Shown: one piece after another, positions 6,144 through 43,924 of the stretch
Layout: the number at the start of each line of letters is the position of its first letter
Position numbering within the stretch: position 1 is the first letter of the stretch
Virus record (IMG/VR): IMGVR_UViG_3300042544_001887
DNA length: 64,000 nt
Direction: 5' to 3' (one strand)
DNA from: a virus
Lineage: Duplodnaviria; Heunggongvirae; Uroviricota; Caudoviricetes
The notes under the pieces: generated by a model
What the model saw: only the letters and a program-made list of their open reading frames with translations
Database searches by the model: none
What the model was told of the DNA's origin: nothing
Made by a program: the position numbers and the translations under genes

Positions 6144-6172
6144 TTGACACAGACTTGGCACTATGCTACAAC
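6144..6172 (+). promoter_or_regulatory. sigma70-like promoter
   Basis: TTGACA-N17-TGcTACAAC. Confidence 0.4.
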
Positions 6173-6204
6173 AAGTTATTGAATAACACATGAGGAACAC
6201 TGAG

Positions 6205-6594: not shown

Positions 6595-6619
6595 CAACAC
6601 TCTCCTGCTGTGCTATAAC
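6591..6619 (+). promoter_or_regulatory. sigma70-like promoter
   Basis: TTGACA-N17-TGcTATAAC. Confidence 0.5.
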
Positions 6620-6650
6620 AACAGCATAGGGCAACACGAGGAGAAATCAA

Positions 6651-6998: not shown

Positions 6999-7008
6999 CA
7001 CTTTCTGG

Positions 7009-7037
7009 TTGACATCCTACCTACACCGTGCTATGTA
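7009..7037 (+). promoter_or_regulatory. sigma70-like promoter
   Basis: TTGACA-N17-TGcTATGTA. Confidence 0.45.
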
Positions 7038-7069
7038 TATTGTATAGGGCAACAAGAGGACAACCACAG

Positions 7070-7321
7070 ATGCCGAATCCTGCTACTGCTCCCCGTGACG
7101 AATTGAACGAGTTTACTCGCTCTGTATGGCTGCTTGGTAACAGCAACTGGGGTAATCACGGTGTACGTCTTCGGAACGGGTTGATTGTCAAACCGATCTA
7201 CAAGCCCGCAGAAGACGAGACCAGTGAAGATGCATTCTTCACCGAAGACTATGAATACTGCTGGAACCTGGACGGCACTTCGGTAACCCGCAGGGACTTT
7301 GATATGATGGAGATCGTGTGA
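7070..7321 (+). CDS. hypothetical protein (GC-rich cassette 3)
   Basis: AGAGGA RBS before ATG at 7070. Confidence 0.4.
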   Translation: MPNPATAPRDELNEFTRSVWLLGNSNWGNHGVRLRNGLIVKPIYKPAEDETSEDAFFTEDYEYCWNLDGTSVTRRDFDMMEIV

Positions 7322-7322
7322 T

Positions 7323-7730
7323 ATGATCAGAGACCTATTCGTTCCTGTGGCTGAACTGCTGTTCTGGTTCACCGGCGGAGAACTACTGCTGAATACCTGG
7401 TGGTTCTTTGTGTGGGTTGTTGGTGGTGCGTTCCTTGTAACCTTGCCGCTGTGGTTAGGTATGCGTCTGGCCAGACGTGGTAGTAACCTCAAGTGGATAC
7501 CTGGCACACTCTTCCTAGTCGGCTTCTTCCCTGCCTTACTGCTGATCACCAGCCCAGGCATCATCCAAGCCGACTTGATGGAAGAATGCCTACCCGTCCA
7601 GACCGTAACAGTGGATACCGCACAGGTCAAAGGTATTGAAGTTCGAGTTCGCCAGTGTCGCTTCAAGGCCAACTACTATGACAAAAATTATGGTGAATGG
7701 CAAGCCTGGGCGGTTGACCGGCACCAATAA
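7323..7730 (+). CDS. membrane protein, 3-4 predicted TM helices
   Basis: hydrophobic segments; ATG overlaps upstream stop. Confidence 0.45.
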   Translation: MIRDLFVPVAELLFWFTGGELLLNTWWFFVWVVGGAFLVTLPLWLGMRLARRGSNLKWIPGTLFLVGFFPALLLITSPGIIQADLMEECLPVQTVTVDTAQVKGIEVRVRQCRFKANYYDKNYGEWQAWAVDRHQ

Positions 7731-8015
7731 CTGTATTATAAGCTGCATAAGGAGAGACCGGCAACTTGTGTAGTGCATGTAGTGACGACTTGCGGATAAC
7801 AGGTGGGATCGTGACATGTTGTAAATCTTTATGTAAGGGGTCGACACTTTATATAGAGAGAACGCTGCATACGCTGTGGGACCTCGGCGTATCATTAAGG
7901 TGATCAAATCACGCAGGGGTAAAAGCCCTAATGAGGGGTCCTAGGAATTAAAGGAAATACTGTGAGATATAGAAAGTTTTACGACGACTTCTAGGCTATA
8001 ACCTAGGAGAATCAA

Positions 8016-8222
8016 ATGGCAAAATCACCTGTTTACGGCAGAGGCCGTAATCGTAAACATAGAGGGCACCGCGGCCCTGTTCACGCTGCGGCTGCTAACA
8101 TCAATATGCGTGGCAAAAAAAGCAAACCTGACCACTGCTGGTGCTGTATTTGTATTGACATGCGTGAAGATATCTTGTATCGTATACACAAGAAGGAGAT
8201 GAGAGATGAAAGAGACACGTAA
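8016..8222 (+). CDS. small basic Cys-rich protein
   Basis: 68 aa, GAGAATCAAATG RBS, CWCCICI motif. Confidence 0.35.
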   Translation: MAKSPVYGRGRNRKHRGHRGPVHAAAANINMRGKKSKPDHCWCCICIDMREDILYRIHKKEMRDERDT

Positions 8223-8730
8223 GTATCTAGTATTTTTAGACATTGACGGCGTTTTTACTAGCTCTCGTGTTCACTTTGCACACGCTGCTGCTTATGAAAT
8301 GTGGCACAGATTTGATCCTGTAGCAGTTGATTTTATGAACAAGATTCATGACAGATATCCTGTGGAGTTTGTGATCATGAGTACTTGGAAGGACAACCTT
8401 CGCAGTGACGATAACAACGTAAAACACTGGGTTCATGCTGCGTTTGGCAACAGTGGCTTTCGTGGGCAACTTGCTACACCTTGGAAAACAGATCCTGACA
8501 ACGTCATCTGGCAGCGTAAAGGTGCAAATGATCGTGCCTACGAAGTAAAAGAATATTTAGAACTATACGCAACAGATATAAAAGATTACATTTTGTTTGA
8601 TGATAATCGCTATCAATTCAAAGAAGTGCTAGGCGTTAATCGCCTAGTTCATACAGATCACGAAAATGGTCTGTTATACAAGCATATGCTAAATGCTCAT
8701 AGTTTGATGGGACAGTGGCACGAGCGGTGA
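8206..8730 (+). CDS. HAD-superfamily hydrolase-like protein
   Basis: motif I FLDIDGV, C-terminal FDDN motif; paralog of 14923 and 20422 ORFs. Confidence 0.5.
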   Translation: MKETRKYLVFLDIDGVFTSSRVHFAHAAAYEMWHRFDPVAVDFMNKIHDRYPVEFVIMSTWKDNLRSDDNNVKHWVHAAFGNSGFRGQLATPWKTDPDNVIWQRKGANDRAYEVKEYLELYATDIKDYILFDDNRYQFKEVLGVNRLVHTDHENGLLYKHMLNAHSLMGQWHER

Positions 8731-8762
8731 CATCGCTCGGAATAATAACAAAGGAAACAGAG

Positions 8763-8972
8763 ATGACTAAAGAACAAGTTTTAAAATCGCTACCCACGTT
8801 TAAATTGCTGGCATGGGGAGAAACCGCAGAAACCAGCGGCAATGGAAAATATGTGCATTTTGATGCAAAAGAATCTAGTACACGTATCTTTACTATTGAA
8901 GCAATTCTTGCAGAACTAGATAAGCGTGACGACAATCCTAACCGAGATTCTAGAAAAAAGAAGAAAAAATGA
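8763..8972 (+). CDS. hypothetical protein
   Basis: AAGGAAACAG RBS. Confidence 0.35.
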   Translation: MTKEQVLKSLPTFKLLAWGETAETSGNGKYVHFDAKESSTRIFTIEAILAELDKRDDNPNRDSRKKKKK

Positions 8973-9055
8973 TTAAGTTGCATATTGCTAATTTGGTTAA
9001 TATTTTGTTATCCAAATTGCAAGAGATATTGTATAATAGATTAATAAATTAAAGT

Positions 9056-9628
9056 ATGTGTAAGTTAGTTTTTGTTTATAGTTCTATGAATTCCGGTAAA
9101 AGCCTAGCTGTTCTTACCAAAAATTATATGTTAAAAGAAAAAGGTTTTAAGACTGTGCTCATGAAGCCGGCAGTTGATACTAGGACTGCGGCAACTGTGG
9201 CTACACGCTTAGGCTTAGAAGAGCCCTGTGTTGTACTAGGAACAACTGATTTGCCTAGTCATACTATACTAAAATCAGCACACGACAAGCCTGATTTTAT
9301 TATTGTTGACGAAGCACAGTTTTTAACAAGCGAACAAGTTTGGGACCTAGCTGGCTTAGTCGACAACTGGGGCATAAACGTGTATTGCTATGGTCTACGA
9401 CTTAACTGGCAAGGAGAGTTTTTTACAGGATCGGAAGCACTGATGAAAATTGCTGATGTGCTAGAACCAATCGAAAACTTCTGTCAAATAAATAAAGGAG
9501 CACTAGCATTCTTTCATATTAAAAAAGCAGGTGGCGATAATCCTGTAGAAGTTGGAATGGAAGACATGTATGACACTGCGTCTAGAAAAGCCTGGAAGCA
9601 GTGGTATGACACAAAAAGGCCTCTGTAG
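9056..9628 (+). CDS. tdk: thymidine kinase
   Basis: P-loop VYSSMNSGKS and TK architecture; 190 aa; TAG stop lies inside following tRNA. Confidence 0.85.
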   Translation: MCKLVFVYSSMNSGKSLAVLTKNYMLKEKGFKTVLMKPAVDTRTAATVATRLGLEEPCVVLGTTDLPSHTILKSAHDKPDFIIVDEAQFLTSEQVWDLAGLVDNWGINVYCYGLRLNWQGEFFTGSEALMKIADVLEPIENFCQINKGALAFFHIKKAGGDNPVEVGMEDMYDTASRKAWKQWYDTKRPL

Positions 9629-9694
9629 CTCAATGGATAGAGCAGCAGACTTCGAATCTGTAGGTTGGGCGTTCGAGTCGCTCCAGGGGTACCA
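9619..9694 (+). tRNA. tRNA-Arg (TCG)
   Basis: acceptor gcctctg/caggggt (2 GU), loop ctTCGaa, T-loop ttcgagt, CCA. Confidence 0.6.
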
Positions 9695-9756
9695 AAATAA
9701 CACTTGATCTCTTACTTTGCATAGTGTAAGCTGTAAGTATAGTAAAGGAGAATCAA

Positions 9757-9936
9757 ATGTGGAAACTTTATATTATGGAATCTGAACGCGGTTGGGGTCA
9801 ACGAGTTGACGAAATACTAAAGTTCGACACGTATGAAGAGGCCGATAAATACAAAAAAGAATTTAACAGTAAAAACAATCTTCCTGAAGTGCCTGATTGG
9901 TACATGTATGCAGATGGACCTGTTAAAGTAGATTAA
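9757..9936 (+). CDS. small hypothetical protein (59 aa)
   Basis: strong RBS AAAGGAGAATCAAATG; below ORF-track cutoff. Confidence 0.4.
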   Translation: MWKLYIMESERGWGQRVDEILKFDTYEEADKYKKEFNSKNNLPEVPDWYMYADGPVKVD

Positions 9937-10020
9937 GTCGCTGTGGTGTAATGGTAGCCACGACAGCTTGAGGTGCTGTTGCCGCAAGGCGTGGGAGTTC
10001 GAATCTCCCCAGCGACACCA
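9937..10020 (+). tRNA. tRNA-Leu (GAG), type II
   Basis: acceptor gtcgctg/cagcgac, loop ttGAGgt, long variable arm, T-loop ttcgaat, CCA. Confidence 0.7.
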
Positions 10021-16475: not shown

Positions 16476-19400
16476 ATGAGATTAAGAAACCTTTTTGAAG
16501 TACAAGTGCAACCAGGTGAACGCAGAGGATTTTCGCTGCGGTTGAAGCGTCTTGAAGATTTGCAAGTAAAAATTGCAGAAATACAAAATACTATAAGCGA
16601 ACTTGGTAATGTTAGCGTTCCAGAAAACTTAAAAAAACAAATGGAAGATCTTATCGATGCTGCTAAAATAGAAAAAGAAAAAATCTATGCAGAAGTATCT
16701 GACGCAGAAGTAAAAAATCCAAGAATTCAAGGAATACCTGGATCTGTCATGAAGTTACTTAGAGGCATAGAAAAAAATGCTTCAACTATAATGAACGCAT
16801 ACAGAAAAACTGGAAAATATCTCTATAGAGGAATCAAATCTTCCGAAGACGCACTTTATGGAAAACCTTTTGACATCAGAAAAGCCAAGGATAGTAATGT
16901 AGATTTAAGTAATGCATTAAATCAATCCTTAGCAGACCAAGGATTTAATGCTAGAAGAGACAACACTACTTTTACTTCTGGTTCTTATAATCAGGCTAGT
17001 AATTACGGTACTGTGTATATAATATTTCCTAGAGATGGGTTCTCATTCCATTACAGTAAAAAGATAAGAGACCTTGTTTTAGATACCGGCAAGATTGATA
17101 TGTTACTGGATCCCGAAATAACAGGTTATATCGAAAGTGCTATACGTTCTAACTGGAGCAATCTCAAAAACTATTTTTCTTATAAATTTAGTGGAGATAA
17201 ATTCTTTACAGGTTATGAATATCAAAAAGATTTAGATGGGTTACAACGTGCAGTAGCAGACGGTGTGCTTCCACAAGAATTTGCAAAATATAAGACTTTT
17301 TATGATCTAGTTGATCCTGCAAAAGTTATAGCTAATTTTCAATACAATCAAACTGATCTCGACAGTGCTATAACTTCCGAACATGAAGTCATGATTACAG
17401 GACCGTATTATGCTGTTAAAACAGAGTCCTTTCAAGATTATATTGACAAATATATTAAAATGACAGCAAATGGTGAATTTGATGTCACTCCAGATAACAA
17501 AAAAGAAAAAACTACTTTAAATCAAAAAATACAATCTATAGTAGGCGGTTCCGCGCCTGAGTTTGCAATAGGAGATTGGGTGCAGCATAAGTACGAAGGA
17601 TTTAAAGGTGAAGTTGTTGACTATTACCATACCAATGACTTTGTTCAAATTAAAGATTATGCCGGAAAACTAAAATTAGTCAATAAGAAAAATATTGATA
17701 AAATTAAAACTCCTGAGATGCCCGACTACCAGCCCGGCGATAAAGTTTATCTAAGAACAAAAGACACAGAATGGGAATATTATAATAATAAAAAATACAA
17801 GGTAGTAGACTCTGATAAGTTTACCGTAACAGTTCAAAAAGGCAGTTACGACACCACAATTACATTACCTAAATTGTTAACCGAACCTGCTCCTAAATTT
17901 GATACCAAAGATCCAAGTGTAGGAGACACAGTTCATGTTACCAAGGGCGATTTTGAAAACATGTACGGAACTATTACATATGTTTCTAGTTACAGTAAAG
18001 ATATTGATGTTGACTTCGGAGACAGCGATTCGCACACTGTTCAAAAAGGATCTTACGAAGTTATTGATCCTGCAACAAAACCTGCAGATGCAAACTCTAT
18101 TGCATCAAAGTTTAAAGAAGGTGATTACGTTAGAATCTCTGACGACGGGTTTGATTACAGTGGTCTTGTAGCGGTAATTAATAAACCTGGTTTATCAAAA
18201 TCAAGAGTATATCCGTTCGGCGAAAAAAGTTATGCTTTAAGTATAAAAAATTCTAGATTAAAAGCTATTGATGAAGATGAATTTAAAAAACAATCGTTTA
18301 GCATAACAGATCAAGTAGTTGTATCTGGCGGCAAGCATGATGGAAAGAGTGGAAAACTTAATTATGTAAGCTTTGATGGAACTATGGAAATAGTTGTCAG
18401 TAGTGGTAACACCATAGAAGTACCCGGAAAATATGTTTTTAATCAAAACGTAAATGGTTCTCCTGAAAATAACGAGAATAAAGAAACAATTAAAAAAGGT
18501 GATTTTGTAAAAATCTCAGACGACTCGGACTTGTTCCCAGGTTCTGTAGCAAAAGTAGTTGTAAAGAATTCCGGCGAAAAATCTACAATATTAGTAAACA
18601 ACGACAACAATCTCGATTATATTATTGATACAAAATATCTAACCAAGATTGATGAAAATGAATTTAACAATAAAAAGCTGTCAACCGGCGACGAAGTCAA
18701 TGTCACAGACGGATATTATAAAGGAAAAACTGGAAAAATAAAATCGTTTGGGACTGATGGTCCTGTAAGAGTTGATATAACTTCGCCGTCCACAGGGGAT
18801 ACATTTACAATTAAGGTACTTCCACAATACTTGGAAAAAATAAATCAAAGCAGTGACGACTTAATTGATTTAATGGATCTTGAGTTTGAACCGATGGACG
18901 AGCCTACTGATTTTAAAAATAATGAAACTAAAAAATTTAAAGTCGGCGACAGCGTAAAAGTAATTAATGGTAAACACAAAGGAAAAACTGGAAAAATAAA
19001 TTACCTATATACGTATACAAAAGAAGCGTATGTTGACTTCGACGGTGAATATCACGACATTGAGTTAAAAGACTTAGAGTTAGACAAAGAAGAATCAAAA
19101 ACTGATAGCAATTTTAACAAAGACGAATTAAAAAAGCTAATCAGTCAAGGAAAAGAAAAAGGTTTTATAACCTATAATCAACTAAACGATGTAGTGCCTT
19201 CGGACAAAGTTACTTCTGAAGAAATTGAAGATATAATGGATATGTTAAATGAATTAGGAATCAATTTAGTTGATGCTGAAAAAGACTCGGCTCCATCAGG
19301 TGAAACTCCACAGGAATTACAAGCAAGAATAAACGATCCAGATACAAAAGCGTTCCTTAAACAAGCATTTGCAGATCCTGATGTAAAAGAACTAGTGAGT

Positions 19401-33157: not shown

Positions 33158-33378
33158 GAGAATACAGACTTAGGAAATTTCAAGCAACAGATGATGAAAC
33201 GCAATCTCGTATGGTTTTTTCTAAGTTTTATAAAGCAACAGAGATTGCTATGAAAGTAGCACAAGAAGATGCCGGAAACGATACTGTTTTGCAATGGACA
33301 GAAACTTCAAAAGATTTTCTCGAAAGCCAAACAACTTCTACTACATACGATATAAAAACTATTACACTTGAGGAATGA
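33154..33378 (+). CDS. hypothetical protein
   Basis: 74 aa. Confidence 0.4.
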   Translation: MREYRLRKFQATDDETQSRMVFSKFYKATEIAMKVAQEDAGNDTVLQWTETSKDFLESQTTSTTYDIKTITLEE

Positions 33379-33766
33379 CATGAAATTTTCTTCTGAACTA
33401 ATCTACTCTGCTGTTAACTTTGTGCAAATTGCTAACAAGGAACTTGGCAACATTGCAGATGAAAAGATCGAAGCAATGTTTGATGCGTTTGACCCTGCAC
33501 TGCGTAGGCAGATTCTTATGCACATGATCAAAGGAGATATTACAGGTCCTATCAGTATTCGTTTTGATCATTCAGCTAAAATGCCAAACAAGATTCAAGC
33601 AATCAAAGCAGTTCGTTGGATTTCGGGCATGGGACTCAAAGAAGCTAAAGAGTTTGTCGAAGAAGCAGAAGCCGGAAAGGTTGCTACTATTGTTGGTAAC
33701 TTCGATGTTAAACAACGTAGGCAGTTTTCTCTTGAACTTGCTAACACAGGCTACGAGGTAGTATGA
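33368..33766 (+). CDS. hypothetical protein
   Basis: 132 aa. Confidence 0.45.
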   Translation: MRNDMKFSSELIYSAVNFVQIANKELGNIADEKIEAMFDAFDPALRRQILMHMIKGDITGPISIRFDHSAKMPNKIQAIKAVRWISGMGLKEAKEFVEEAEAGKVATIVGNFDVKQRRQFSLELANTGYEVV

Positions 33767-34917: not shown

Positions 34918-35067
34918 AAGATAAATAAAATAAAGAGGAAAAGACTTTCTATGAACTTAACGAGTGCATCATCGCTAGTATGGACAAACGGATTACAAAA
35001 TCCGGGCAATGATCTATGCTCGGAGGGTTATGGAAACGGTTAACAATGAGTTAACAAAAAATTCCAA

Positions 35068-35103
35068 AAACCCTCCAAGCAAGAAGCTTAGGAGGGTTTT
35101 TTA
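35068..35103 (+). terminator. intrinsic terminator
   Basis: ccctcc...ggaggg stem then TTTTTT. Confidence 0.65.
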
Positions 35104-35105
35104 AT

Positions 35106-35240
35106 ATGAACACGAAAGTTTTAAGAGACTATAAGGCACTACTAAAAGACTACAACGAAGGCAAAATTAGTTACAAAGAATTTGTTGATCAAACACTTCC
35201 GCTGTGGAATAAATTAAACAACTTGTTCGAAAAAGATTAA
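35106..35240 (+). CDS. small hypothetical protein (44 aa)
   Basis: ATG 9 nt after the terminator 3' arm (TAGGAGGG) which doubles as RBS. Confidence 0.35.
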   Translation: MNTKVLRDYKALLKDYNEGKISYKEFVDQTLPLWNKLNNLFEKD

Positions 35241-35248
35241 AAAAGCAG

Positions 35249-35277
35249 TTGACATAGAGTAAAACATACACTATATT
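35249..35277 (+). promoter_or_regulatory. strong sigma70 consensus promoter (tRNA operon)
   Basis: TTGACA-N17-TATATT. Confidence 0.6.
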
Positions 35278-35316
35278 AACTAAACAAACAAAAAATAAAA
35301 CGTAACGCAAGTTACA

Positions 35317-35329
35317 CGCTCTTTGACAA
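35317..35329 (+). promoter_or_regulatory. boxA-like antitermination element
   Basis: CGCTCTTTGACAA vs E. coli rrn boxA TGCTCTTTAACAA. Confidence 0.45.
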
Positions 35330-35414
35330 TTTAGATTTGTTGTTTACATCGTAAGATGTAGTAAACAACGCTCACTTAGACGCAAGTCGATAATAGTGGG
35401 GGTAAGTAGAGAAT

Positions 35415-35466
35415 GACTCTACTTACACGTATTAACTGGTAGCTGGTTCGATTCCGGCGTAGAGTC
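35415..35466 (+). ncRNA. truncated tRNA-like hairpin RNA
   Basis: 7-bp acceptor-like stem gactcta/tagagtc plus ctgg-ttcgatt-ccgg T-arm, no D/anticodon arms. Confidence 0.25.
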
Positions 35467-35823
35467 TAGGTGACTATGAAAGGTTTGATTCCTTTGTACT
35501 ACTGGTGTAGCAAATTGGACGACAGTCCGCCAAGTTAGTACGTGTAAGTAGAGTCGAGCAATTGAATTATTCGATGCTGTGAAGTATTTCTAACAGCATT
35601 TGATGATTGTGCCATGTGGTAAAAAGATTGCTTACAGCTAGAAAAAAGCTGACTACAATAATACACGGTAATAGAAAAGACCAAATCTTTTTTAACATCG
35701 TGTATTTATAGAAAAAACTAGTGCAGGAGGATAACTCTGTAAGTCACAAGAACAACGGTGCCGCATGACTCAATTGCGGTTAAATTACCCGAGTAGTGCC
35801 GGGCAGAGCCAAACACACAATGT

Positions 35824-35899
35824 TCCTCGTTAGCTCAGTTGGTAGAGTATTTGACTGTTAATCAAAGTGTCGCTGGTTCGAGCCCAGCACGAGGAGCCA
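35824..35899 (+). tRNA. tRNA-Asn (GTT)
   Basis: acceptor tcctcgt/acgagga, loop ctGTTaa, CCA. Confidence 0.7.
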
Positions 35900-35966
35900 A
35901 AATTGAGAAGGGGATAAACACGGCAGTCTCATTGCGTAGCAACGGTGCCCTTTCTTTTAGAATAAT

Positions 35967-36043
35967 GCATCGGTATAGCTCAGCTGGTAGAGCAGCGGTC
36001 TCCAAAACCGCGTGTCCTGGGTTCGAATCCTAGTGCCGGTGCC
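35967..36043 (+). tRNA. tRNA-Trp (CCA)
   Basis: acceptor gcatcgg/ccggtgc, loop ctCCAaa, T-loop gttcgaatc; 3' CCA not encoded. Confidence 0.6.
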
Positions 36044-36051
36044 AAAAATAC

Positions 36052-36143
36052 GGATTGATGGGTGAGAGGCTTAAACCAGCAGATTGCTAATCTGTCGTAC
36101 CTTGTAAAGGGTACCGAGGGTTCGAATCCCTCTCGATCCGCCA
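36052..36143 (+). tRNA. tRNA-Ser (GCT), type II
   Basis: acceptor ggattga/tcgatcc, loop ttGCTaa, long variable arm, T-loop ttcgaat, CCA. Confidence 0.65.
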
Positions 36144-36154
36144 GAATAAGATAC

Positions 36155-36229
36155 GGGCTGTTGGTATAGTTGGGAACACAGTAGCTTTGCAAGCTTCAAT
36201 CACCGGTTCGAACCCGGTACGGTCCACCA
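36155..36229 (+). tRNA. tRNA-Ala (TGC)
   Basis: acceptor gggctgt/acggtcc with G3-U70 Ala identity pair, loop ttTGCaa, T-loop ttcgaac, CCA. Confidence 0.65.
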
Positions 36230-36236
36230 AAATAAT

Positions 36237-36280
36237 GCGGGATTAACTCAGTGGTAGATAAATACTTTAAATAGGAGATA
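36237..36280 (+). pseudogene. tRNA 5'-half remnant (duplicate of tRNA-Val 5' end)
   Basis: gcgggattaactcagtggtaga mirrors 5' end of tRNA at 36693; 3' half replaced by HNH gene RBS and ORF. Confidence 0.4.
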
Positions 36281-36288
36281 CTCTACCA

Positions 36289-36702
36289 ATGGCTAAAACG
36301 TTCAACTGTTTAAATTGTAGTAAAGAAAGTAAATGGAGTTATAGCAGCACTAACAAGTATTGCAGCGGCGATTGCTTTCAAGAACACAAATGGAAAACTG
36401 TAAAAAAACTTGAAGTAGAAGCAGGGTTAGTCAATGACGGAAGCCCTGCGTTAAAAAAATACCTTGTTGAAACAAAAGGTGAATGCTGTGAAGAGTGCAA
36501 AGTTGGCACTGTTTACAACGGAAAGCCATTAACACTAACTGTTGATCATATTGATGGTAATAGTGATAATAACTTTCCAGGCAACCTTAGACTTTTATGT
36601 CCTAATTGTCACAGTCAAACTGAAACATACAAAGGACGAAACAAAAAGAATAGTGCTCGTTCTCGATATATGAGAAAGTATAGAGATAATTTGCGGAATT
36701 AG
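36289..36702 (+). CDS. HNH homing endonuclease
   Basis: CxxC...CEECK...HIDGNSDNNFPGNLRLLCPNCH HNH motif; AGGAG RBS; embedded in tRNA cluster. Confidence 0.8.
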   Translation: MAKTFNCLNCSKESKWSYSSTNKYCSGDCFQEHKWKTVKKLEVEAGLVNDGSPALKKYLVETKGECCEECKVGTVYNGKPLTLTVDHIDGNSDNNFPGNLRLLCPNCHSQTETYKGRNKKNSARSRYMRKYRDNLRN

Positions 36703-36767
36703 CTCAGTGGTAGAGCAGGGGTTTTACACACCTCAGGCCGGGAGTTCGACCCTCTCATTCCGCACCA
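36693..36767 (+). tRNA. tRNA-Val (TAC)
   Basis: acceptor gcggaat/attccgc, loop ttTACac, T-loop ttcgacc, CCA; 5' end overlaps HNH stop. Confidence 0.7.
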
Positions 36768-36769
36768 AG

Positions 36770-36871
36770 TTTAGACTGGATATAATCACCCCTTGTGAGG
36801 GTGGCCCAAGGACTCAGTAACGAGATACAGCGAAGGGTTGTTGGTCAAGGCTGCAAACAGCCCAGTCTAAA
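36770..36871 (+). ncRNA. structured spacer RNA closed by 10-bp stem (tttagactgg/ccagtctaaa)
   Basis: perfect long-range stem with internal hairpins (cacccttgtgagggtg, ggctgcaaacagcc). Confidence 0.35.
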
Positions 36872-36878
36872 GCAATAC

Positions 36879-36967
36879 GGACACTTGGCAGAGATGGATT
36901 ATTGCACCGGTCTTGAAAACCGACGAACCGCAAGGTTCCCAGGGTTCGAATCCCTGAGTGTCCGCCA
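36879..36967 (+). tRNA. tRNA-Ser (TGA), type II
   Basis: acceptor ggacact/agtgtcc, loop ctTGAaa, long variable arm, T-loop ttcgaat, CCA. Confidence 0.65.
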
Positions 36968-37043
36968 TAAGCACACTAGCATCAGGCTAGTCCAGACCGT
37001 AAGGTTAACGGTGACAAGCGGGGAGAGACCCGCACAAAAATAC

Positions 37044-37120
37044 GGCCTGTTAGTCGAGTGGTTTAAGATGCCTGCCTGTCACGCAGGAGATGATGGGTTC
37101 AATTCCCATACAGGTCGCCA
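37044..37120 (+). tRNA. tRNA-Asp (GTC)
   Basis: acceptor ggcctgt/acaggtc, stem cctgc/gcagg loop ctGTCac, T-loop ttcaatt, CCA. Confidence 0.7.
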
Positions 37121-37135
37121 AATTGAAAGGAAGGC

Positions 37136-37233
37136 TCATAGTTTACGTTTAGCCCGTTACGACGGTTTGGGCGGAAAATGGTTGAGTCACGGCACGGGCG
37201 GGTCGGGGGCTGCGTGACGGCATTGAACTATGA
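37136..37233 (+). ncRNA. structured spacer RNA closed by 8-bp stem (tcatagtt/aactatga)
   Basis: long-range stem plus GC-rich hairpin gtcacg...cgtgac. Confidence 0.3.
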
Positions 37234-37272
37234 AGCAGTTGTCGGTCTGCGTTAACAAACACCGTCAAAATT

Positions 37273-37346
37273 GCGGGTATGGTGTAGCGGTAACATGCGA
37301 GCCTTCCAAGCTCTTGTCACGAGTTCGAATCTCGTTACCCGCTCCA
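37273..37346 (+). tRNA. tRNA-Gly (TCC)
   Basis: acceptor gcgggta/tacccgc, loop ctTCCaa, T-loop ttcgaat, CCA. Confidence 0.7.
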
Positions 37347-37371
37347 ATTTATCCGTATGTGAGAGGACAAT

Positions 37372-37638
37372 ATGAAAACAGAAGATGAAAAGAGAGAATT
37401 TTACGAGCGTTGCTCCTCTATGTTAGGAATAGCTCACGTTTACAACACGCCAGTTCCACGACGCAATAGATGGAACGCAAGACGACTGGGCAACGGACGT
37501 TATCCAGGATTTGGACTAATACAGTGCTACGGAAACGGAGCAAGAGTAGTTAGTCGACAAGGAACACGTATGTTTTATACATACGAAGCAGTTTATGAAT
37601 ATTTGCAGATTGTGCTTGACGCAACTGCAAAAGCGTAG
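37372..37638 (+). CDS. hypothetical protein inside tRNA cluster
   Basis: 88 aa, GAGAGGACAATATG RBS. Confidence 0.45.
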   Translation: MKTEDEKREFYERCSSMLGIAHVYNTPVPRRNRWNARRLGNGRYPGFGLIQCYGNGARVVSRQGTRMFYTYEAVYEYLQIVLDATAKA

Positions 37639-37653
37639 TATAAAAACTATAAC

Positions 37654-37729
37654 GCCCTTATAGCTCAGCTGGTAGAGCATCTGATTTGTAATCAGAGGGT
37701 CGGCGGTTCAAGTCCGTCTGGGGGCACCA
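37654..37729 (+). tRNA. tRNA-Thr (TGT)
   Basis: acceptor gccctta/tgggggc, stem tctga/tcaga loop ttTGTaa, T-loop ttcaagt, CCA. Confidence 0.7.
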
Positions 37730-37736
37730 AAATTAT

Positions 37737-37812
37737 GTCGCGTTAGCAAAAGGTTAATGCGTGTCCTGTGCAAAGGACAAGGACGGTGGTTAAACTCCCC
37801 GACGCGACTCCA
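37737..37812 (+). ncRNA. atypical tRNA-like gene (perfect acceptor+CCA, 8-nt anticodon-position loop, degenerate T-arm)
   Basis: acceptor gtcgcgt/acgcgac, D-stem gca/tgc, stem tgtcc/ggaca with loop tgtgcaaa, no TTC T-loop. Confidence 0.35.
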
Positions 37813-37818
37813 AATAAT

Positions 37819-37900
37819 GCGGATGTGGTGTAATGGTAGCCACGCTGGTCTTAGAAGCCAGTGCGTAAGCGTGAGAGTTCGAGTCTCTCCATCCGCACCA
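37819..37900 (+). tRNA. tRNA-Leu (TAG), type II
   Basis: acceptor gcggatg/catccgc, loop ctTAGaa, long variable arm, T-loop ttcgagt, CCA. Confidence 0.7.
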
Positions 37901-37944
37901 AAATATTTCTTATCTTAAAAAGTTTTAAATTTAGAAAGATTAAC

Positions 37945-38388
37945 ATGCAATTTTATGAAAAAGTAACTTTTTTACCAAGCATTCCAGAAGGTTTAATAAA
38001 ACCTTTAGATATAATCGAATCGATGCCGAATGTTTTTCCAGATCCGGATTACGCTCATACTTATGCCAGCTATAAGGCAAATGACGATTTACAAGCTTGG
38101 GCACAAAGTTATTTTGACTTTCCTGTACTTGCAAGATATCAGGTGATTAAACAACAATTGCCTATTCATGTTGACGTTGGAATTGTAGGAATAAAATATA
38201 ACTACCTTATTAGCAGGGGTGGTGACGATGTAAAAACAAGATGGTGGGATAGTGTAGAAAATCCTTCAAAAATACTTTTTGAAACTACTTCGCCATTACG
38301 TGTGTGGCACAGCTTAAACATCGAAGTGCCACACGATATAACAGAAATTAGTTATCCTAGAATTAGTGTAACTATAAGAAAAAAATAG
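37945..38388 (+). CDS. hypothetical protein
   Basis: first ATG after tRNA-Leu; track ORF start overlaps the tRNA. Confidence 0.4.
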   Translation: MQFYEKVTFLPSIPEGLIKPLDIIESMPNVFPDPDYAHTYASYKANDDLQAWAQSYFDFPVLARYQVIKQQLPIHVDVGIVGIKYNYLISRGGDDVKTRWWDSVENPSKILFETTSPLRVWHSLNIEVPHDITEISYPRISVTIRKK

Positions 38389-38416
38389 TAATAACTTTTT
38401 TAAAGAAAAATACTGT

Positions 38417-38492
38417 TGGGAAGTAGCTCAATTGGTAGAGTAGCGGACTTTGAATCCGTTGGTTGGTGGTTCGAATCCACCCTTCCCAGCCA
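38417..38492 (+). tRNA. tRNA-Gln (TTG)
   Basis: U1-A72 acceptor tgggaag/cttccca, loop ctTTGaa, T-arm ggtgg-ttcgaat-ccacc, CCA. Confidence 0.7.
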
Positions 38493-38498
38493 AGATAT

Positions 38499-38575
38499 CG
38501 GAGTATAGCACAGCCTGGTAGTGCGATGGTTTTGGGTACCATAGGTCGAGGGTTCGAATCCTTCTACTCCGACCA
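38499..38575 (+). tRNA. tRNA-Pro (TGG)
   Basis: C1-G72 acceptor cggagta/tactccg, stem atggt/accat loop ttTGGgt, T-loop ttcgaat, CCA. Confidence 0.7.
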
Positions 38576-38792
38576 CGATTAAACTGTTGATCTAACCTCG
38601 GACTCGAACAAATAGCCATAGGCTTAGGCAGGTAGTACGGCGGATTAGTGTTAGACAACATTCGGACCAAGTAATCCGTGAGGTCCAGCTATTAGTGATG
38701 GCGGGGACGAACAAGCGGCTGATTTGGTATCAGTCGTGAGGCGGTAAGCTGCACCATAGGTGTCGTAGGCCGGGACTTGTTCAATTTATTAT

Positions 38793-38870
38793 CTGGGTAT
38801 AGCTCAGTCTGTGAAGAGTGCTCGCCTTGGAAGCGAGAGGTCGCTGGTTCAAATCCAGTTACCCAGACCA
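38793..38870 (+). tRNA. tRNA with TGG-type anticodon loop (second Pro-like, identity uncertain)
   Basis: acceptor ctgggta/tacccag, stem ctcgc/gcgag loop ctTGGaa, T-loop ttcaaat, CCA. Confidence 0.5.
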
Positions 38871-38877
38871 AAATAAC

Positions 38878-38952
38878 GCGGTGTTGGACAAGATGGATTG
38901 TCAGAGGATTCTAAACCTTAGTAGGCAGGATCGTTACCTGTACGCCGCACCA
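38878..38952 (+). ncRNA. 75-nt tRNA-like gene with candidate CUA (amber-reading) anticodon and swapped A54/U58 T-loop
   Basis: perfect cloverleaf spacing 7/2/4/8/4/1/5/7/5/4/5/7/5/7+A+CCA; acceptor gcggtgt/acgccgc, D-arm gaca/tgtc, T-stem gcagg/cctgt loop atcgtta; anticodon stem weak (3 of 5 bp), loop ttCTAaa. Confidence 0.3.
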
Positions 38953-39065
38953 ATACACACATATGATGCCGTAGCCCGACGCTGGTATGTGTGAAACCTA
39001 AATATCGGGCATGTAATTTAATAAAGGAAAGAAAAATGTCGTAGATTGAATATGCTTGTAAAGAT

Positions 39066-39602
39066 GTGGTGTTCCACTTTAACAAAAAACACTTGGAAGA
39101 TGAAACTATTCCGATGTGGGTGATTAAGTTTCGAGGCGAAACCTATTATGTAAATCATGTCGAATGTAGTGTTCCGTGGAGTACAAAAGAAACGCCTGAT
39201 AACAATCACACTAAAGGCAGTATCAAAGTCAAGGATTGTTTAGTTATTATTGATGATGAGAACTGTGCTAACATTCGTGTGTTAACTCCAGCAGATCGTT
39301 TGCGTCTTACTAAAGAACAAACTGTAAGAGTTATTACCGAGCAAGGAGCAAAACTGCGTACTGCACTACAGAACATGGCACATGGTCCGATTAAGTTAGC
39401 AGGTGGAGGATGTGGCACTACTTGGTATATCACAGATATTCCCAGTAAGAAACATTTAACAATACTACAACTACAGATTCCTTATATTAGGCAATTGATG
39501 CCCAATGAGGATTATTACAAGAAATATGATCAAACATCTTCAGATACTGAATGGTTAGATGATGATGACGACTACGAGTGGGAAGACCTTTATGAAAATT
39601 GA
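39066..39602 (+). CDS. hypothetical protein
   Basis: 178 aa. Confidence 0.45.
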   Translation: MVFHFNKKHLEDETIPMWVIKFRGETYYVNHVECSVPWSTKETPDNNHTKGSIKVKDCLVIIDDENCANIRVLTPADRLRLTKEQTVRVITEQGAKLRTALQNMAHGPIKLAGGGCGTTWYITDIPSKKHLTILQLQIPYIRQLMPNEDYYKKYDQTSSDTEWLDDDDDYEWEDLYEN

Positions 39603-39771
39603 AGTGCCTCACTCGTTACTAAAAGAAGTCTGTGCTACAATTCGTCAATTCAAATTAAGGCACGGGCCATTCTACAAACTGTTAAATAGCTATAGGATAT
39701 ATTTGTATCCAAGTAGTAAATTAAGTTTGTTTTTGATTAAACATTCTAGCACTGTTACAGTGCTAGAATAA
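39592..39771 (+). CDS. small hypothetical protein (59 aa)
   Basis: ATG overlapping upstream stop. Confidence 0.3.
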   Translation: MKIEVPHSLLKEVCATIRQFKLRHGPFYKLLNSYRIYLYPSSKLSLFLIKHSSTVTVLE

Positions 39772-39772
39772 T

Positions 39773-39847
39773 GCGGGCGTAGCTCAGGGGTAGAGCGTCA
39801 CCTTGCCAAGGTGAATGTCGTGGGTTCGAATCCCATCGCCCGCTCCA
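39773..39847 (+). tRNA. tRNA-Gly (GCC)
   Basis: acceptor gcgggcg/cgcccgc, stem tcacc/ggtga loop ttGCCaa, T-loop ttcgaat, CCA; preceded by 10-bp hairpin 39745-39768. Confidence 0.7.
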
Positions 39848-39865
39848 ATTGTTGAAAGATATTGT

Positions 39866-40447
39866 ATGAGTAAAATAGAGCACTTTTATCATCTTCCGCA
39901 CTTCGAAGAAGAATGGTTTACATATTCGGCTTTATATTCTGATATGGTAGCTAAATTTCCATCCGGAAGTAAGTTTGTTGAAGTCGGTTGTTGGAAGGGA
40001 AGATCTGCTGCTTATATGTGTGTAGAAATTGCTAATTCAAAAAAAGACATTGATTTTTATTGTGTTGACTTTTGGCATGTATCAGCAGAGCATGAAATAG
40101 AAGAACCCCATCTAAAAAATTTGTATGAAATTTTTCTTTCTAATATGAAACCAGTTGAAGCTTTTTATAAGCCAATGAAAATACCGTCGTCTGATGCTGC
40201 AAAAAAATTTAAAGACGAAAGTTTAGATTTTGTTTTTATTGATGCTGGACATCAATACGATGAAGTAAAAGATGATATTCTTGCATGGTATCCAAAAATT
40301 AAAAAAGGTGGCATACTAGCAGGACATGATTTTTATCCAACTGAGCCAACTTGGGGAGATGTTTCTAAAGTAGTAAACGAACTTTTTCCAAATAATTATG
40401 AAGTTTTAATAGAACAAAGTTGCTTTCTAGTAAATAAGCCGGTATAG
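39866..40447 (+). CDS. class I SAM-dependent methyltransferase (CmcI/TylF-like)
   Basis: VEVGCWKGRSAAYM motif I-like, FIDAGHQYDEV, GGILAGHDF; stop overlaps next tRNA. Confidence 0.5.
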   Translation: MSKIEHFYHLPHFEEEWFTYSALYSDMVAKFPSGSKFVEVGCWKGRSAAYMCVEIANSKKDIDFYCVDFWHVSAEHEIEEPHLKNLYEIFLSNMKPVEAFYKPMKIPSSDAAKKFKDESLDFVFIDAGHQYDEVKDDILAWYPKIKKGGILAGHDFYPTEPTWGDVSKVVNELFPNNYEVLIEQSCFLVNKPV

Positions 40448-40511
40448 CTGAGTGGTTTAGCAGCTGATTAGTAATCAGCTGACGGGAGTTCGATTCTCTC
40501 TACCGGCACCA
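40438..40511 (+). tRNA. tRNA-Thr-like, apparent anticodon AGT (A34)
   Basis: acceptor gccggta/taccggc, stem gctga/tcagc loop ttAGTaa (part of 10-bp perfect palindrome), T-loop ttcgatt, CCA. Confidence 0.55.
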
Positions 40512-41376: not shown

Positions 41377-42138
41377 ATGAATTATCACATAAAAAACTTT
41401 ATTATCCCTATACATGTCTTATTTTTAGTATCACTAATTGGTATGTATTTAAATATAATCGATTTTCATATTTGGTTATTTTTAATAGGGTGGACTTTGA
41501 TCTATGGGCTAGGTCTTGTTGTAGGATTTCATAAATTGTTATCCCATAGCTCTTTTAAAACAAACAAATACATATCTTATGTGTTAGCTTACTTAGGATG
41601 CTTAGGAATTAGCGGATCACCTATATGGTGGGCTGCTATACATAGAGGACATCATCATGCTCATACTGAGACTGAAAAAGACCTTCAAAGTCCACGTCGT
41701 GGATGGCTTACATCTTACATAGGTTGGCAGTTTGGTGAAGAAACAAGTAAAATAAGTTTAAAGTATGCATCTGATTTAATAAAAGATCCTTTTTATCTTT
41801 TTTTACACAAGAATTATAGATTAGTTGTTTGGAGTACAGTGATTATTGTTGGTATGTTGTCACCATCTGTTGCAGTTTCATTATTAATATTTCCGATGAT
41901 TGCAGCACACCATGGAGAAAATATTACCAATTCATTTGGTCATAGCAGGTTTGCTGGTTACAGAAATTTTAATACCAACGACGACACTATAAATAACCCA
42001 TTGTTAGCATTTATAACTTGGGGTCAGCTTTTGCATAACAATCATCATGCTAAGCCAAATAACGATAGTTTTGCCATTAAATGGTTTGAATTTGATCCAA
42101 CTTCTCCTTTTGTATGGATTTTAAAAAAACTAAAATAG
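41377..42138 (+). CDS. membrane fatty-acid desaturase (stearoyl-CoA desaturase-like)
   Basis: three His boxes HKLLSH, HRGHHHAH, HNNHHAKP plus TM helices. Confidence 0.75.
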   Translation: MNYHIKNFIIPIHVLFLVSLIGMYLNIIDFHIWLFLIGWTLIYGLGLVVGFHKLLSHSSFKTNKYISYVLAYLGCLGISGSPIWWAAIHRGHHHAHTETEKDLQSPRRGWLTSYIGWQFGEETSKISLKYASDLIKDPFYLFLHKNYRLVVWSTVIIVGMLSPSVAVSLLIFPMIAAHHGENITNSFGHSRFAGYRNFNTNDDTINNPLLAFITWGQLLHNNHHAKPNNDSFAIKWFEFDPTSPFVWILKKLK

Positions 42139-42195: not shown

Positions 42196-42224
42196 TTGAC
42201 CTTTGAGGCAACATGCACTATATT
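42196..42224 (+). promoter_or_regulatory. strong sigma70 consensus promoter
   Basis: TTGACC-N17-TATATT. Confidence 0.6.
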
Positions 42225-42255
42225 AACTACATAAGCAGCAAATGTGTTGCTTACA

Positions 42256-42268
42256 CGCTCTTTGAAAA
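42256..42268 (+). promoter_or_regulatory. boxA-like antitermination element
   Basis: CGCTCTTTGAAAA; same 22-nt leader as at 35308-35334. Confidence 0.45.
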
Positions 42269-42269
42269 T

Positions 42270-43370
42270 TTAGTAACTTAACTGCAATAATCAACAGTTT
42301 AGCGAAAGGCTAAAGATTGTGGTTGTGCTGAGTAATTAACAGTTTAAATCAGCAAGTGATGCGTGATTAGGTAAACTGTTGTTTATTGCAGTTTTTAAGA
42401 TGGGCGGCTTAGCGTCCACGTAAGGGTAAGTGCGGTAACGCACCCAAAGGCAGGTTTCCTATAAACTGCCGCCAGCAATGGTCCACCTAAGCAAGCCTGA
42501 ACTAAGGTTGACTCGGTTTAACCCGAAAGCAACCTCCGTCCTTAGGCGGGCGGTAGGCAGTAAGTTAGAGTTGTAGTCCGAAAGGATAGGCACAGAGCCG
42601 GTCGGTGAGTGCTAAGAGGCTGTGGTGGCTGAACTGCAACATACCAAACTAACGAATGCTGAAGGTTAACAGGTAGCTACACTGTCTGAGCCCGCAAGCA
42701 AAGGCATGGTAGCATCACAAGAGTGGAAGGGTTAGGCCCCGGATACTTGAAGTGACGTTGAGTAGCTCGCAAGGCAAAAGACAGTCGGTGTGTTGTATAC
42801 TGTATCTAACAAGGTATGGTGCAACTGGGACAGCACATCGAAGTAGGTTCGCAATATTGCATAACGGTAATGCAATCGTCTTATGAAACGATGGATTGTA
42901 GGTTCAACTCCTACTATTGAAACAAAAGCGAAAGACTGTCCCGGTACGTTGTGAAAGGTGGTTAATGCCACACTCGCAAGAGAATGTGGTCTACGGATGC
43001 TCGCAAGGCTGATGTAGTTGTTCGGAAAGATAGCGTAAGGGTTTAGCGACTCTGAACTGCTCGCAAGGCAGACGAAGGATAGAAGGACGAGTAGCAACGT
43101 GCGACGAGAGAAACGCCACTCTCCAAAAAAGGCACCACTGGGAGATACAGGATGACCGTAAAAGGCTTCTGTGGATAACGAGAGAACGTGGCTCGCAAGG
43201 CTAACGGTAATGCTCAAAGGCTCCTAACGCAAGGCATAATCTCAGCCTATGCAAAAGTTTAAGTTTTAACTAACTTAACTTGTTGAACAGTTTTCGAGTT
43301 CCGACCCACTTGGAAGTAGGCGACTACTCCATTTCCGAGACTGTTCAACTAGTTAAGTTTCTACTTTAAA
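42270..43370 (+). ncRNA. large structured non-coding RNA candidate (about 1.1 kb, ORF-free, GNRA-rich)
   Basis: no credible ORF on either strand; seven cgcaag motifs, four as GCTCGCAAGGC; many local and long-range stems; lies between boxA leader and tRNAs. Confidence 0.4.
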
Positions 43371-43371
43371 C

Positions 43372-43456
43372 AATACACAAGGCGTAGGCCACGCCGATGT
43401 TATGGTAACAGGTTTGCCTTGTGGCAGGCTCGGTGGTTCGATTCCACAGTGTATTG
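43372..43456 (+). ncRNA. tRNA-like RNA (acceptor, D-arm and T-arm present; anticodon arm aberrant)
   Basis: acceptor aatacac/gtgtatt, D-stem ggcg/cgcc, T-loop ttcgatt; no CCA. Confidence 0.3.
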
Positions 43457-43472
43457 TTTAAAATAGAATTAT

Positions 43473-43548
43473 TGCGGGGTAGAGAAGCGGCATCTCGTTT
43501 GGCTCATAACCAAAAGATCGTGGGTTCGAGTCCCACCCATCGCAACCA
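43473..43548 (+). tRNA. tRNA-Met/fMet-like (CAT)
   Basis: D-stem gaga/tctc, stem tttgg/ccaaa loop ctCATaa, T-arm gtggg-ttcgagt-cccac, 3' end cgcaacca like initiator tRNA; acceptor pairing imperfect. Confidence 0.55.
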
Positions 43549-43708
43549 AAATTTAGCTTAAGCTAAAATTTATATTATTTAAAGAAGTGAGATTTAAAAA
43601 CATTCTAGTTCTCACTATAGGCGTAAAAAGAAACACATAGTTGTTTGAAGGCAGCTGGGCCCGTTAAAGTTGTACTAGACAAATGCTGATGCCATCTTTA
43701 AATAATTT

Positions 43709-43792
43709 GCCCTAGTGGTGTAATGGTAGCCACGGAAGACTCAAAATCTTTTGCCGCAAGGCGTGGGGGTTCAAGTCCCTCCTGGGGCACCA
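43709..43792 (+). tRNA. tRNA-Leu (CAA), type II
   Basis: acceptor gccctag/ctggggc, loop ctCAAaa, long variable arm, T-loop ttcaagt, CCA. Confidence 0.7.
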
Positions 43793-43801
43793 ATTCTTTA
43801 T

Positions 43802-43885
43802 GCCCGCTTGGTGAAATTGGTAGCCGCGGCAGACTTAAAATTTGTTTCCTCTGGAGTGCCGGTTCGAGTCCGGCAGCGGGCACCA
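43802..43885 (+). tRNA. tRNA-Leu (TAA), type II
   Basis: acceptor gcccgct/agcgggc, loop ctTAAaa, long variable arm, T-loop ttcgagt, CCA. Confidence 0.7.
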
Positions 43886-43899
43886 ATAAAAAACAATCA

Positions 43900-43924
43900 A
43901 AAGGCACCCTAGGGTGCCTTTTCT
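43900..43924 (+). terminator. intrinsic terminator
   Basis: ggcaccc-ta-gggtgcc stem then TTTTCT. Confidence 0.6.

Follow-up and report, generated by a model that had tools for sequence, protein, structure and literature searches.

The DNA analysed here, a 64 kb stretch of a Caudoviricetes genome (IMG/VR virus record IMGVR_UViG_3300042544_001887; hereafter the window), carries an rrn-type boxA element at the 5' ends of two untranslated operons, in both cases behind a sigma-70-type promoter and directly after a short hairpin. One operon is a tRNA array and the other encodes the GOLLD RNA and three tRNAs. By analogy with known boxA systems, the host polymerase is probably modified via NusB/NusE on boxA into a termination-resistant, RNA-chaperoning complex that serves these long untranslated phage transcripts. 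The first-pass annotation had proposed a host-type promoter and an rrn-type boxA leader feeding a tRNA operon. This proposal has gained comparative evidence from the duplication of the module, its enrichment in viral sequences, its association with promoters and tRNAs, an identical 17-mer in cellular rrn leaders and a variant that follows host class, whereas its principle is not new, having been published for phage T7. The hairpin 1 nucleotide (nt) upstream of boxA and the second module, at 42196-42273, were absent from that annotation.

The promoter of site 1, composed of TTGACA (35249-35254), a 17-nt spacer and TATATT (35272-35277), is the top sigma-70-type match between 30 and 45 kb of the window when scored out of 12 (11/12). 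The extended boxA CGCTCTTTGACAATTTAG occupies 35317-35334, 40 nt past the -10 hexamer. Its core GCTCTTTGACAA (35318-35329), the sole exact copy in the window, matches the rrn boxA GCTCTTTAACAA of E. coli, whose rrnB leader was read directly, at 11 of 12 positions; the spacing and the match given earlier both hold. The boxA consensus in gamma-proteobacteria is GYTCTTTAANA, with variants in other phyla, and GCTCTTTGACA and GCTCTTTGAAA agree with this gamma-proteobacterial consensus at 10/11 positions. In both the predicted minimum free energy (MFE) structures and the centroid structures, boxA is unpaired between two hairpins at both leaders of the window.

The arrangement follows that of the E. 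coli rrnB leader, which reads TTGACT-N16-TATTAT, 11 nt, boxB hairpin GCCGCtgagaaaaagcgaaGCGGC, “ac” and TGCTCTTTAACAATTTATCAG. The order at rrnB P2 (-10, boxB hairpin, 2 nt, TGCTCTTTAACAATTTAT) is the same as in the window (-10, hairpin, 1-2 nt, boxA), the distance from -10 to boxA is ~40 nt, and 15 of 17 positions match over GCTCTTTAACAATTTAT. The likeness extends to a long structured untranslated transcript with tRNAs and to a long-range helix after boxA. The window differs from E. coli rrn in lacking a recognisable boxC and a second boxA in a spacer, in encoding tRNAs and GOLLD rather than rRNA, and in being a phage genome. The hairpin after boxA, previously likened to the boxB/boxC arrangement, is real (P1, 35339-35369), but the counterpart of the rrn boxB is the hairpin before boxA, and no boxC could be recognised; the unit end set earlier at 35345 cuts through P1. 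The stem base of P1, GUUGUUU/AAACAAC, is kept in the nearest relatives (loci L014, L009 and L013), while its position holds another hairpin in L016, L017 and L049 and none in L018 and L020.

The second module is nearly identical to the first. Its promoter reads TTGACC-N17-TATATTAACTA and its boxA CGCTCTTTGAAAATTTAG in DNA letters (42256-42273), so that the two boxA sites of the window share the form CGCTCTTTGA(C/A)AATTTAG, 1-2 nt past a hairpin. The GOLLD RNA that follows scores 191.8 bits against a gathering score of 150 for Rfam family RF02032, with the full model (positions 1-416) covered at 42785-43248, and the operon extends over 1.7 kb without a translated gene. A helix-enclosed domain with a T-loop (43250-43470) was observed after GOLLD, and three tRNAs follow it.

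The boxA pattern GYTCTTTRAMA, scanned on both strands of the window, has exactly two matches, at 35318 and 42257. Two matches are not rare in themselves (17 of 100 shuffles), and matches with one mismatch occur at chance level (18 vs 16.2 expected); the significance of the sites therefore lies in the context shared by both and in their conservation elsewhere rather than in the match count. Both are situated past two of the best promoters of the window and ahead of two untranslated operons. When IMG/VR was queried for the exact 18-mer CGCTCTTTGAMAATTTAG, 49 contigs were obtained, compared with 8 for the reversed sequence of the same 18-mer (~6-fold); 7 of the control contigs constitute one family, and the control represents ~2 independent families overall.

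The dereplicated viral set comprises 38 sites, both window sites counted in. A promoter, called at 9/12 or better, is present at 25 of them, nearly always as TTGACA-N16/17, and ends 12-51 nt upstream of boxA. At 21/38 sites a hairpin with 5 bp or more ends no further than 3 nt from CGCTC, as against 8-13 at shifted control positions. The boxB-like register is occupied by a hairpin in 21 of 22 selected leaders, with 16 distinct stems in which pairing is kept (for example GTAAC/GTTAC, GAAGAT/GTCTTC, GGATAT/ATATCC, GTAGCAAG/CTTGCTAC and GTTCC/GGAAC). Of the 34 sites whose contigs continue for 1 kb or more downstream, 28 have tRNAs on the same strand within 1.5 kb; the tRNA density is 2.59 per kb downstream compared with 0.59 upstream, and the opposite strand has none. 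A scan of metagenome contigs provided at least 107 dereplicated 18-mer sites among the matches listed, in which tRNAs lie downstream of 25/33 promoter-bearing and 4/31 promoterless sites, and three sites precede a 16S gene.

The same element is found in cellular rrn leaders. The matches listed from a scan of one genome per species are taxonomically mixed, many of them chance or coding. They include an identical 17-mer in the position of the rrn-leader boxA, with the 16S start 200-250 nt further on, in at least three Hyphomicrobiaceae metagenome-assembled genomes (MAGs; L062, L080 and L124) and at least one Rhodobacteraceae MAG (L158). Also among the matches listed are an Omnitrophota MAG with the 17-mer 51 nt ahead of 16S and a Zixibacteria MAG with the 17-mer past a promoter and directly ahead of tRNA genes.

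Cultured phages carry the element in two forms. A short BLAST query identified the G8 form, GCTCTTTGACAATTTGG, in three roseophages of Ruegeria pomeroyi (DSS3P8, vB_RpoS-V10 and DSS3_MAL1), where it is unannotated, and it is also present in Phaeobacter phage MD18. The roseophage G8 boxA precedes tRNAs, GOLLD and tmRNA; in DSS3P8, tRNA-like elements, tRNAs, GOLLD and a permuted tmRNA all come after gcaCGCTCTTTGACAATTTGG, on its strand. We also note that this same-strand non-coding region of DSS3P8 (L170 3501-6641, corresponding to KT870145 6317-9457) comprises boxA, two tRNA-like elements, tRNAs, GOLLD at 150.7 bits and a permuted alphaproteobacterial tmRNA at 109 bits, and that record KT870145 annotates only its tRNAs. 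The A8 form matched 1044 cultured phage records, and the ten top-ranked of these, wherever they name a genus, point to gamma-proteobacterial hosts (Vibrio, Escherichia, Salmonella, Klebsiella, Pseudomonas, Yersinia and Proteus). In T5-like phages of Vibrio and Proteus the order is TTGACA-N17-GATACT, hairpin GTTCCcaagGGAAC, “a” and the A8-form (gamma) boxA CGCTCTTTAACAATTTGG. This T5-like module, unannotated, resides in the terminal repeat upstream of the pre-early A2/A1 genes in Vibrio phages VspSw_1 (L171 3446-3522) and Hades (L172) and in Proteus phage PM135 (L379). As judged from these sequences, the boxA variant tracks host class in cultured phages, with G8 in roseophages and A8 in phages of gamma-proteobacteria. 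A8 sites in IMG/VR mostly occupy nut-like positions of 40-60 kb prophages and precede tRNAs in just 5 of 62 cases; the tRNA link of the G8 form is therefore not a trivial property of any boxA match. The window itself has no DNA match to cultured phages, and its NAMPT, rIIA and structural protein show just 28-60% identity to phages of mixed hosts.

GOLLD was detected by Rfam in 6 of the 15 related loci scanned, every time on the boxA strand and downstream of boxA; with the window and Phaeobacter phage MD18, the GOLLD loci total 8. The boxA lies 528-613 nt before the conserved GOLLD domain in 5 of these 8 loci (the window, L017, L008, L036 and L033), a spacing that fits the length of the variable 5' half of GOLLD. 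In L029 the two are 1061 nt apart, and in roseophages, where tRNAs intervene, 2.1-2.4 kb. The two-module layout of the window recurs in L017, L036 and the 3-kb contig L061. The latter (JBIKJV010000260.1), a 3.1-kb contig of a Phycisphaerales MAG bin from Lake Mendota, holds a tRNA leader, a GOLLD leader and tRNAs, and appears to be a piece of a related phage that ended up in a bacterial MAG by mis-binning.

The 0.5 kb that follows boxA at site 1 is devoid of notable open reading frames (ORFs) and strongly structured (MFE z = -7.8 vs shuffles), which upholds the earlier description of ~0.5 kb of structured RNA. An internal-loop hairpin (35373-35398) is among its conserved elements: 12 of 17 matches to this motif in viral loci are 21-54 nt past a boxA, and its outer and inner stems both covary. 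The form S1-UUA-[short stem + GNRA loop]-GAURAUA-S1' was seen in the window and in L007, L009, L016, L017, L018, L020, L023, L028 and L039.

The hairpin is followed by a domain whose strands appear able to exchange partners. X1, GUAAGUAGAG (35402-35411), can pair locally with X', CUCUACUUAC (35417-35426), and the 22 nt that make up X' and its extension (35415-35436) are complementary to 35534-35555, the end of which is a second copy of X (X2). The X':X2 helix starts ~100 nt after boxA. In ten relatives 99.5% of cells are paired, compared with 21-43% in slid controls, and both sides have changed in 7 of 19 pairs. Covariation scores 0.387 vs 0.106 in shuffles, none of the 500 shuffles reaching the former value. 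An artificial GAAA loop served to connect the strands in this test, which addresses the helix only. The architecture recurs with differing X sequences in other phage lineages (L007, L015, L028, L004, L001, L033 and L061). In this layout X1 forms a hairpin with X', and X' with its extension makes a covarying helix of ~20 bp with X2 around a multi-hairpin T-loop domain. A search of 35000-36000 against Rfam, with E up to 10, matched tRNA alone and placed the leader in no curated family; since it has no Rfam family, the strand-exchange domain is possibly a new structured RNA or a processing scaffold. A tRNA-like acceptor stem at 35415-35466, a weak tRNA-Sec match, was considered and rejected, its pairing being lost in L061, where the T-loop hairpin alone is conserved.

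The tRNA run at 35824-40511, reported before as about 19 tRNAs, includes interspersed ORFs as described, but the number of tRNAs is 16 by both ARAGORN and Rfam. The first tRNA past the boxA leader is tRNA-Asn(GUU) in most relatives (35824 in the window and about 20 related loci). Two tRNA-like genes of the window, at 37737-37812 and 42850-42923, are abnormal in the anticodon loop, where ARAGORN reports '???' and anticodons of 2 nt and 4 nt.

Elements of this kind are already known. Among the A8 matches is T7, whose A3 promoter precedes aagaCGCTCTTTAACAATCTGG, the R0.3 hairpin and gene 0.3, in that order. According to PMC3709561, which cites Savalia et al. 2010, the T7 boxA past the early promoters is functional in antitermination on host polymerase, and boxA mutations make Gp2 dispensable. 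T7 resembles the window phage in its early leader, in which a virulent phage uses a strong sigma-70 promoter (TTGACA...TACGAT) and the leader CGCTCTTTAACAATCTGG, then processing hairpins; its boxA is downstream of A1-A3 and upstream of the R0.3 RNase III site, and the variant matches the host class. The T7 boxA heads a translated early operon (genes 0.3-1.3), in contrast to the window module, which heads RNA-gene operons, has the G8 variant and a hairpin directly ahead of boxA, and is present twice.

A functional resemblance, and only that, exists with the boxA of CRISPR-array leaders, which keeps Rho from terminating the transcription of long untranslated arrays too early (Stringer et al. 2020, PMC7665894) and represents an independent recruitment of boxA to the leader of a long, repetitive untranslated array. 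There the locus is cellular, with boxA between cas genes and an array of CRISPR repeats in place of tRNAs, and flanking hairpins that are conserved are not reported; the window modules precede tRNA genes and GOLLD, with no CRISPR repeats. In the searchable, mostly open-access literature no connection of boxA with phage tRNA arrays, tRNA operons or GOLLD came to light, which is weak evidence. With that scope, the contexts appear to be new: tRNA arrays, GOLLD and tmRNA operons of large environmental phages and roseophages, the non-gamma G8 variant, and the flanking conserved RNA elements.

The antitermination and chaperone complex of rrn operons consists of NusA, NusB, NusE, NusG, SuhB and S4, and boxB, present in rrn, is not required there. 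By analogy, host sigma-70 RNA polymerase would start at both consensus promoters and, ~35-40 nt into the transcript, expose a short hairpin and then a single-stranded boxA (CGCUCUUUGAMAAUUUAG). The latter would bind the host NusB-NusE(S10) dimer, as in the rrn and T7 early leaders, and the dimer, together with NusA, NusG and any SuhB and S4 that the host has, would stay attached to the polymerase during elongation. A complex modified in this way should be faster and resistant to Rho termination and should hold the 5' leader near the RNA exit, and this tethering would favour long-range helices and large folds. The gain would be full-length synthesis, co-transcriptional folding and processing of RNAs that have no ribosome protection, namely the 0.5-kb leader and 16 tRNAs at site 1 and ~1 kb of GOLLD and three tRNAs at site 2. 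In PMC4807359, Nus factors are proposed to aid leader-trailer pairing by looping boxA to the polymerase, and rRNA is reported to be rather Rho-resistant. The X':X2 helix, ~100 nt past boxA, fits this looping or chaperone role and, in our own estimation, resembles the rrn leader-trailer helices.

This account, which is supported by comparative sequence evidence and predicted features, has to accommodate several observations that weigh against it. The transcripts are G-rich and highly structured, and C-rich, G-poor windows are missing from unit 1 and rare in unit 2. Like rRNA, these transcripts may be poor Rho substrates, and the benefit may then lie as much in speed and chaperoning as in antitermination. 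A boxC was not recognised downstream of boxA; at the place of the E. coli boxC segment, relatives share no sequence except lineage-specific hairpins. The G8 form contains TTGACA, a -35-like hexamer, and the conserved GNRA hairpin after boxA may leave room for a phage-encoded partner. Nor does boxA seem necessary for every such operon: the GYTCTTTRAMA scan found none at the other tRNA cluster of the window (1874-10020), and none lies within 3 kb of GOLLD in Sinorhizobium phage Phosso, which shows that the link is not universal. The cluster at 1874-10020 has 12-13 genes, several sigma-70-like promoters and a helix-enclosed minidomain (about 1795-1860) ahead of tRNA-Cys. A weaker boxA copy ahead of it, the degenerate GCACTTTAAAA at 1709, was dismissed as unconvincing, one-mismatch matches being at chance level.

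The GNRA hairpin at 35373-35398 raises the question of a lambda-type nut site, at which boxA would need a phage N-like RNA-binding protein on that hairpin and the complex would be phage-specific instead of a plain rrn copy. Lambda nutL/nutR also combine a phage boxA (CGCTCTTA) and Nus factors with a GNRA-type hairpin after boxA, in the order seen here; the internal-loop hairpin covaries and is tightly linked to boxA in many lineages, the A8-form matches in viral contigs belong for the most part to nut-like sites in prophages of 40-60 kb, and the phage encodes a 1019-amino-acid protein that combines KOW motifs of the NusG/Spt5 type with a sigma-70 region 1.1 domain. Lambda, however, depends on N at boxB and its boxA is shortened, whereas the window has a full rrn-type boxA with an upstream hairpin and no N-like gene seen near either site, nor a small arginine-rich ORF after either. 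The GOLLD leader of the same phage lacks the GNRA hairpin, as do many other boxA-tRNA leaders; the extended boxA has an identical counterpart in cellular rrn boxA, and T7 provides a precedent that works without an N protein. We consider a nut-type mechanism unlikely.

The remaining explanations are less probable still. It is quite improbable that the leaders act chiefly as decoys, with abundant boxA transcripts titrating NusB/NusE away from host rrn operons to shut off the host and any effect on the phage's own transcripts being secondary. The near-consensus promoters, the two copies per genome and the predicted single-stranded boxA would suit such a role, which would not need the specific position at the 5' end of same-strand tRNA/GOLLD operons. 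A slightly smaller chance is given to a fortuitous match or a DNA-level feature, either the -35 TTGACA of a tandem promoter or the operator of a phage regulator. GCTCTTTGACAA does include TTGACA, a scan at site 2 gives TTGAAA-N18-AATAAT overlapping boxA, and two pattern matches in 64 kb are not rare alone. Conservation, however, reaches beyond the hexamer by 7 nt on its upstream and 5 nt on its downstream side, and chance is opposed by the enrichment, the strand bias to tRNAs and the identity to rrn boxA. A second promoter inside boxA was ruled out, since site 1 has no -10 at 16-18 nt past the hexamer and the A8 form lacks TTGACA with the module unchanged. Least probable, to the point of being hardly credible, is repression by Nus factors of downstream expression. 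This mode exists in E. coli and Salmonella at the boxA of the suhB 5' untranslated region, but that boxA is close to the start codon of a translated gene, while here at least the first 1 kb consists of untranslated RNA genes, and the strong promoters and long arrays argue for high output. Modification of the host polymerase via NusB/NusE continues to be the reading that we favour.

The features of both units are compiled in Table 1. A reverse-strand version of the terminator at 35067-35102 was also listed in the terminator/promoter scan.

Table 1. Elements of the two boxA-headed units and their flanks, in window coordinates.
Feature	Coordinates	Strand	Basis or remark
Intrinsic terminator-like hairpin and U-run (aaaaaccctccaagcaagaagcttaggagggtttttt), closes upstream unit	35067-35102	+	Sequence, stem alignment
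Sigma-70-type promoter TTGACA-N17-TATATT	35249-35277	+	11/12 match; predicted start near 35283-35285
boxB-like hairpin GUAAC-GCAA-GUUAC (5 bp)	35302-35315	+	Predicted fold; end 1 nt before CGCUC
Extended boxA CGCUCUUUGACAAUUUAG, core 35318-35329	35317-35334	+	Sequence match to rrn boxA; predicted single-stranded
Hairpin P1, GUAA loop	35339-35369	+	Predicted fold
Internal-loop hairpin CAC-UUA-[GAC GCAA GUC]-GAUAAUA-GUG	35373-35398	+	Motif conservation and covariation
Strand-exchange leader domain enclosing small hairpins, including T-loop-like GGUUCGAUUCC	35402-35555	+	Complementarity, covariation
3' part of structured leader	35556-35823	+	Blocks shared with L013, L049, L061; no Rfam match
Array of 16 tRNA genes with interspersed small ORFs	35824-40511	+	ARAGORN and Rfam
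HNH endonuclease ORF within tRNA array	36289-36702		
Methyltransferase ORF within tRNA array	39815-40447		
Second promoter TTGACC-N17-TATATT	42196-42224	+	10/12 match
Second boxB-like hairpin UAAGCAGCA-AAUG-UGUUGCUUA	42232-42253	+	Predicted fold; “ca” between hairpin and boxA
Second extended boxA CGCUCUUUGAAAAUUUAG	42256-42273	+	Sequence; 32 nt past -10
GOLLD RNA: variable 5' half, conserved 3' domain 42785-43248, embedded tRNA-like element 42850-42923	42274-43248	+	Rfam RF02032
tRNA-Met, tRNA-Leu(CAA), tRNA-Leu(UAA), end of second non-coding operon	43473-43885	+	ARAGORN and Rfam
Palindromic intrinsic terminator AAAAGGCACCCTAGGGTGCCTTTT, then next promoter	43899-43922	.	Terminator scan and sequence

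Several other genes of the window are of note. The 1019-amino-acid protein (16476-19535, + strand) contains the sigma-70 region 1.1 domain at residues 881-943 (Pfam 72.9 bits; the best PDB matches are RpoD) and several KOW motifs of the NusG/Spt5 type; it may interact with RNA polymerase, NusE or Rho, and a single-sequence query found no close relatives in IMG/VR. A homolog of the C-terminal domain of ribosomal protein L7/L12 (PF00542, 37.3 bits) is encoded at 33368-33766 (+ strand). An RNA-repair gene set (HAD_SAK_2 domain, kinase-like P-loop protein and RNA ligase) is located at 20422-22680, and a fatty-acid desaturase gene (41377-42138) lies between the two non-coding operons.

tRNA arrays and GOLLD are long untranslated RNAs, a class that Rho is expected to shorten, and the searchable literature does not address how phages secure their expression. 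A putatively host-matched boxA at the operon 5' ends offers a testable mechanism and marks likely GOLLD 5' ends and operon boundaries; cultured systems are at hand in roseophage DSS3P8 on Ruegeria and in T5-like Vibrio phages. The boxA variant may serve as a simple host-class marker for uncultured phages. To our knowledge the function of GOLLD is not known, recent cryo-electron microscopy structures notwithstanding, and the module would link its biogenesis to the rRNA-folding chaperone machinery. As a bolder and decidedly tentative proposal, large environmental phages may possess a portable cassette that mimics the rrn operon, made up of a consensus promoter, a boxB-like hairpin, a host-matched boxA, the internal-loop hairpin and an X1:X' pairing replaced by the 22-bp X':X2 helix, which would recruit the host ribosomal antitermination and chaperone complex to fold and process GOLLD and tRNA arrays co-transcriptionally. 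If this is true, boxA would be part of the missing biology of GOLLD.

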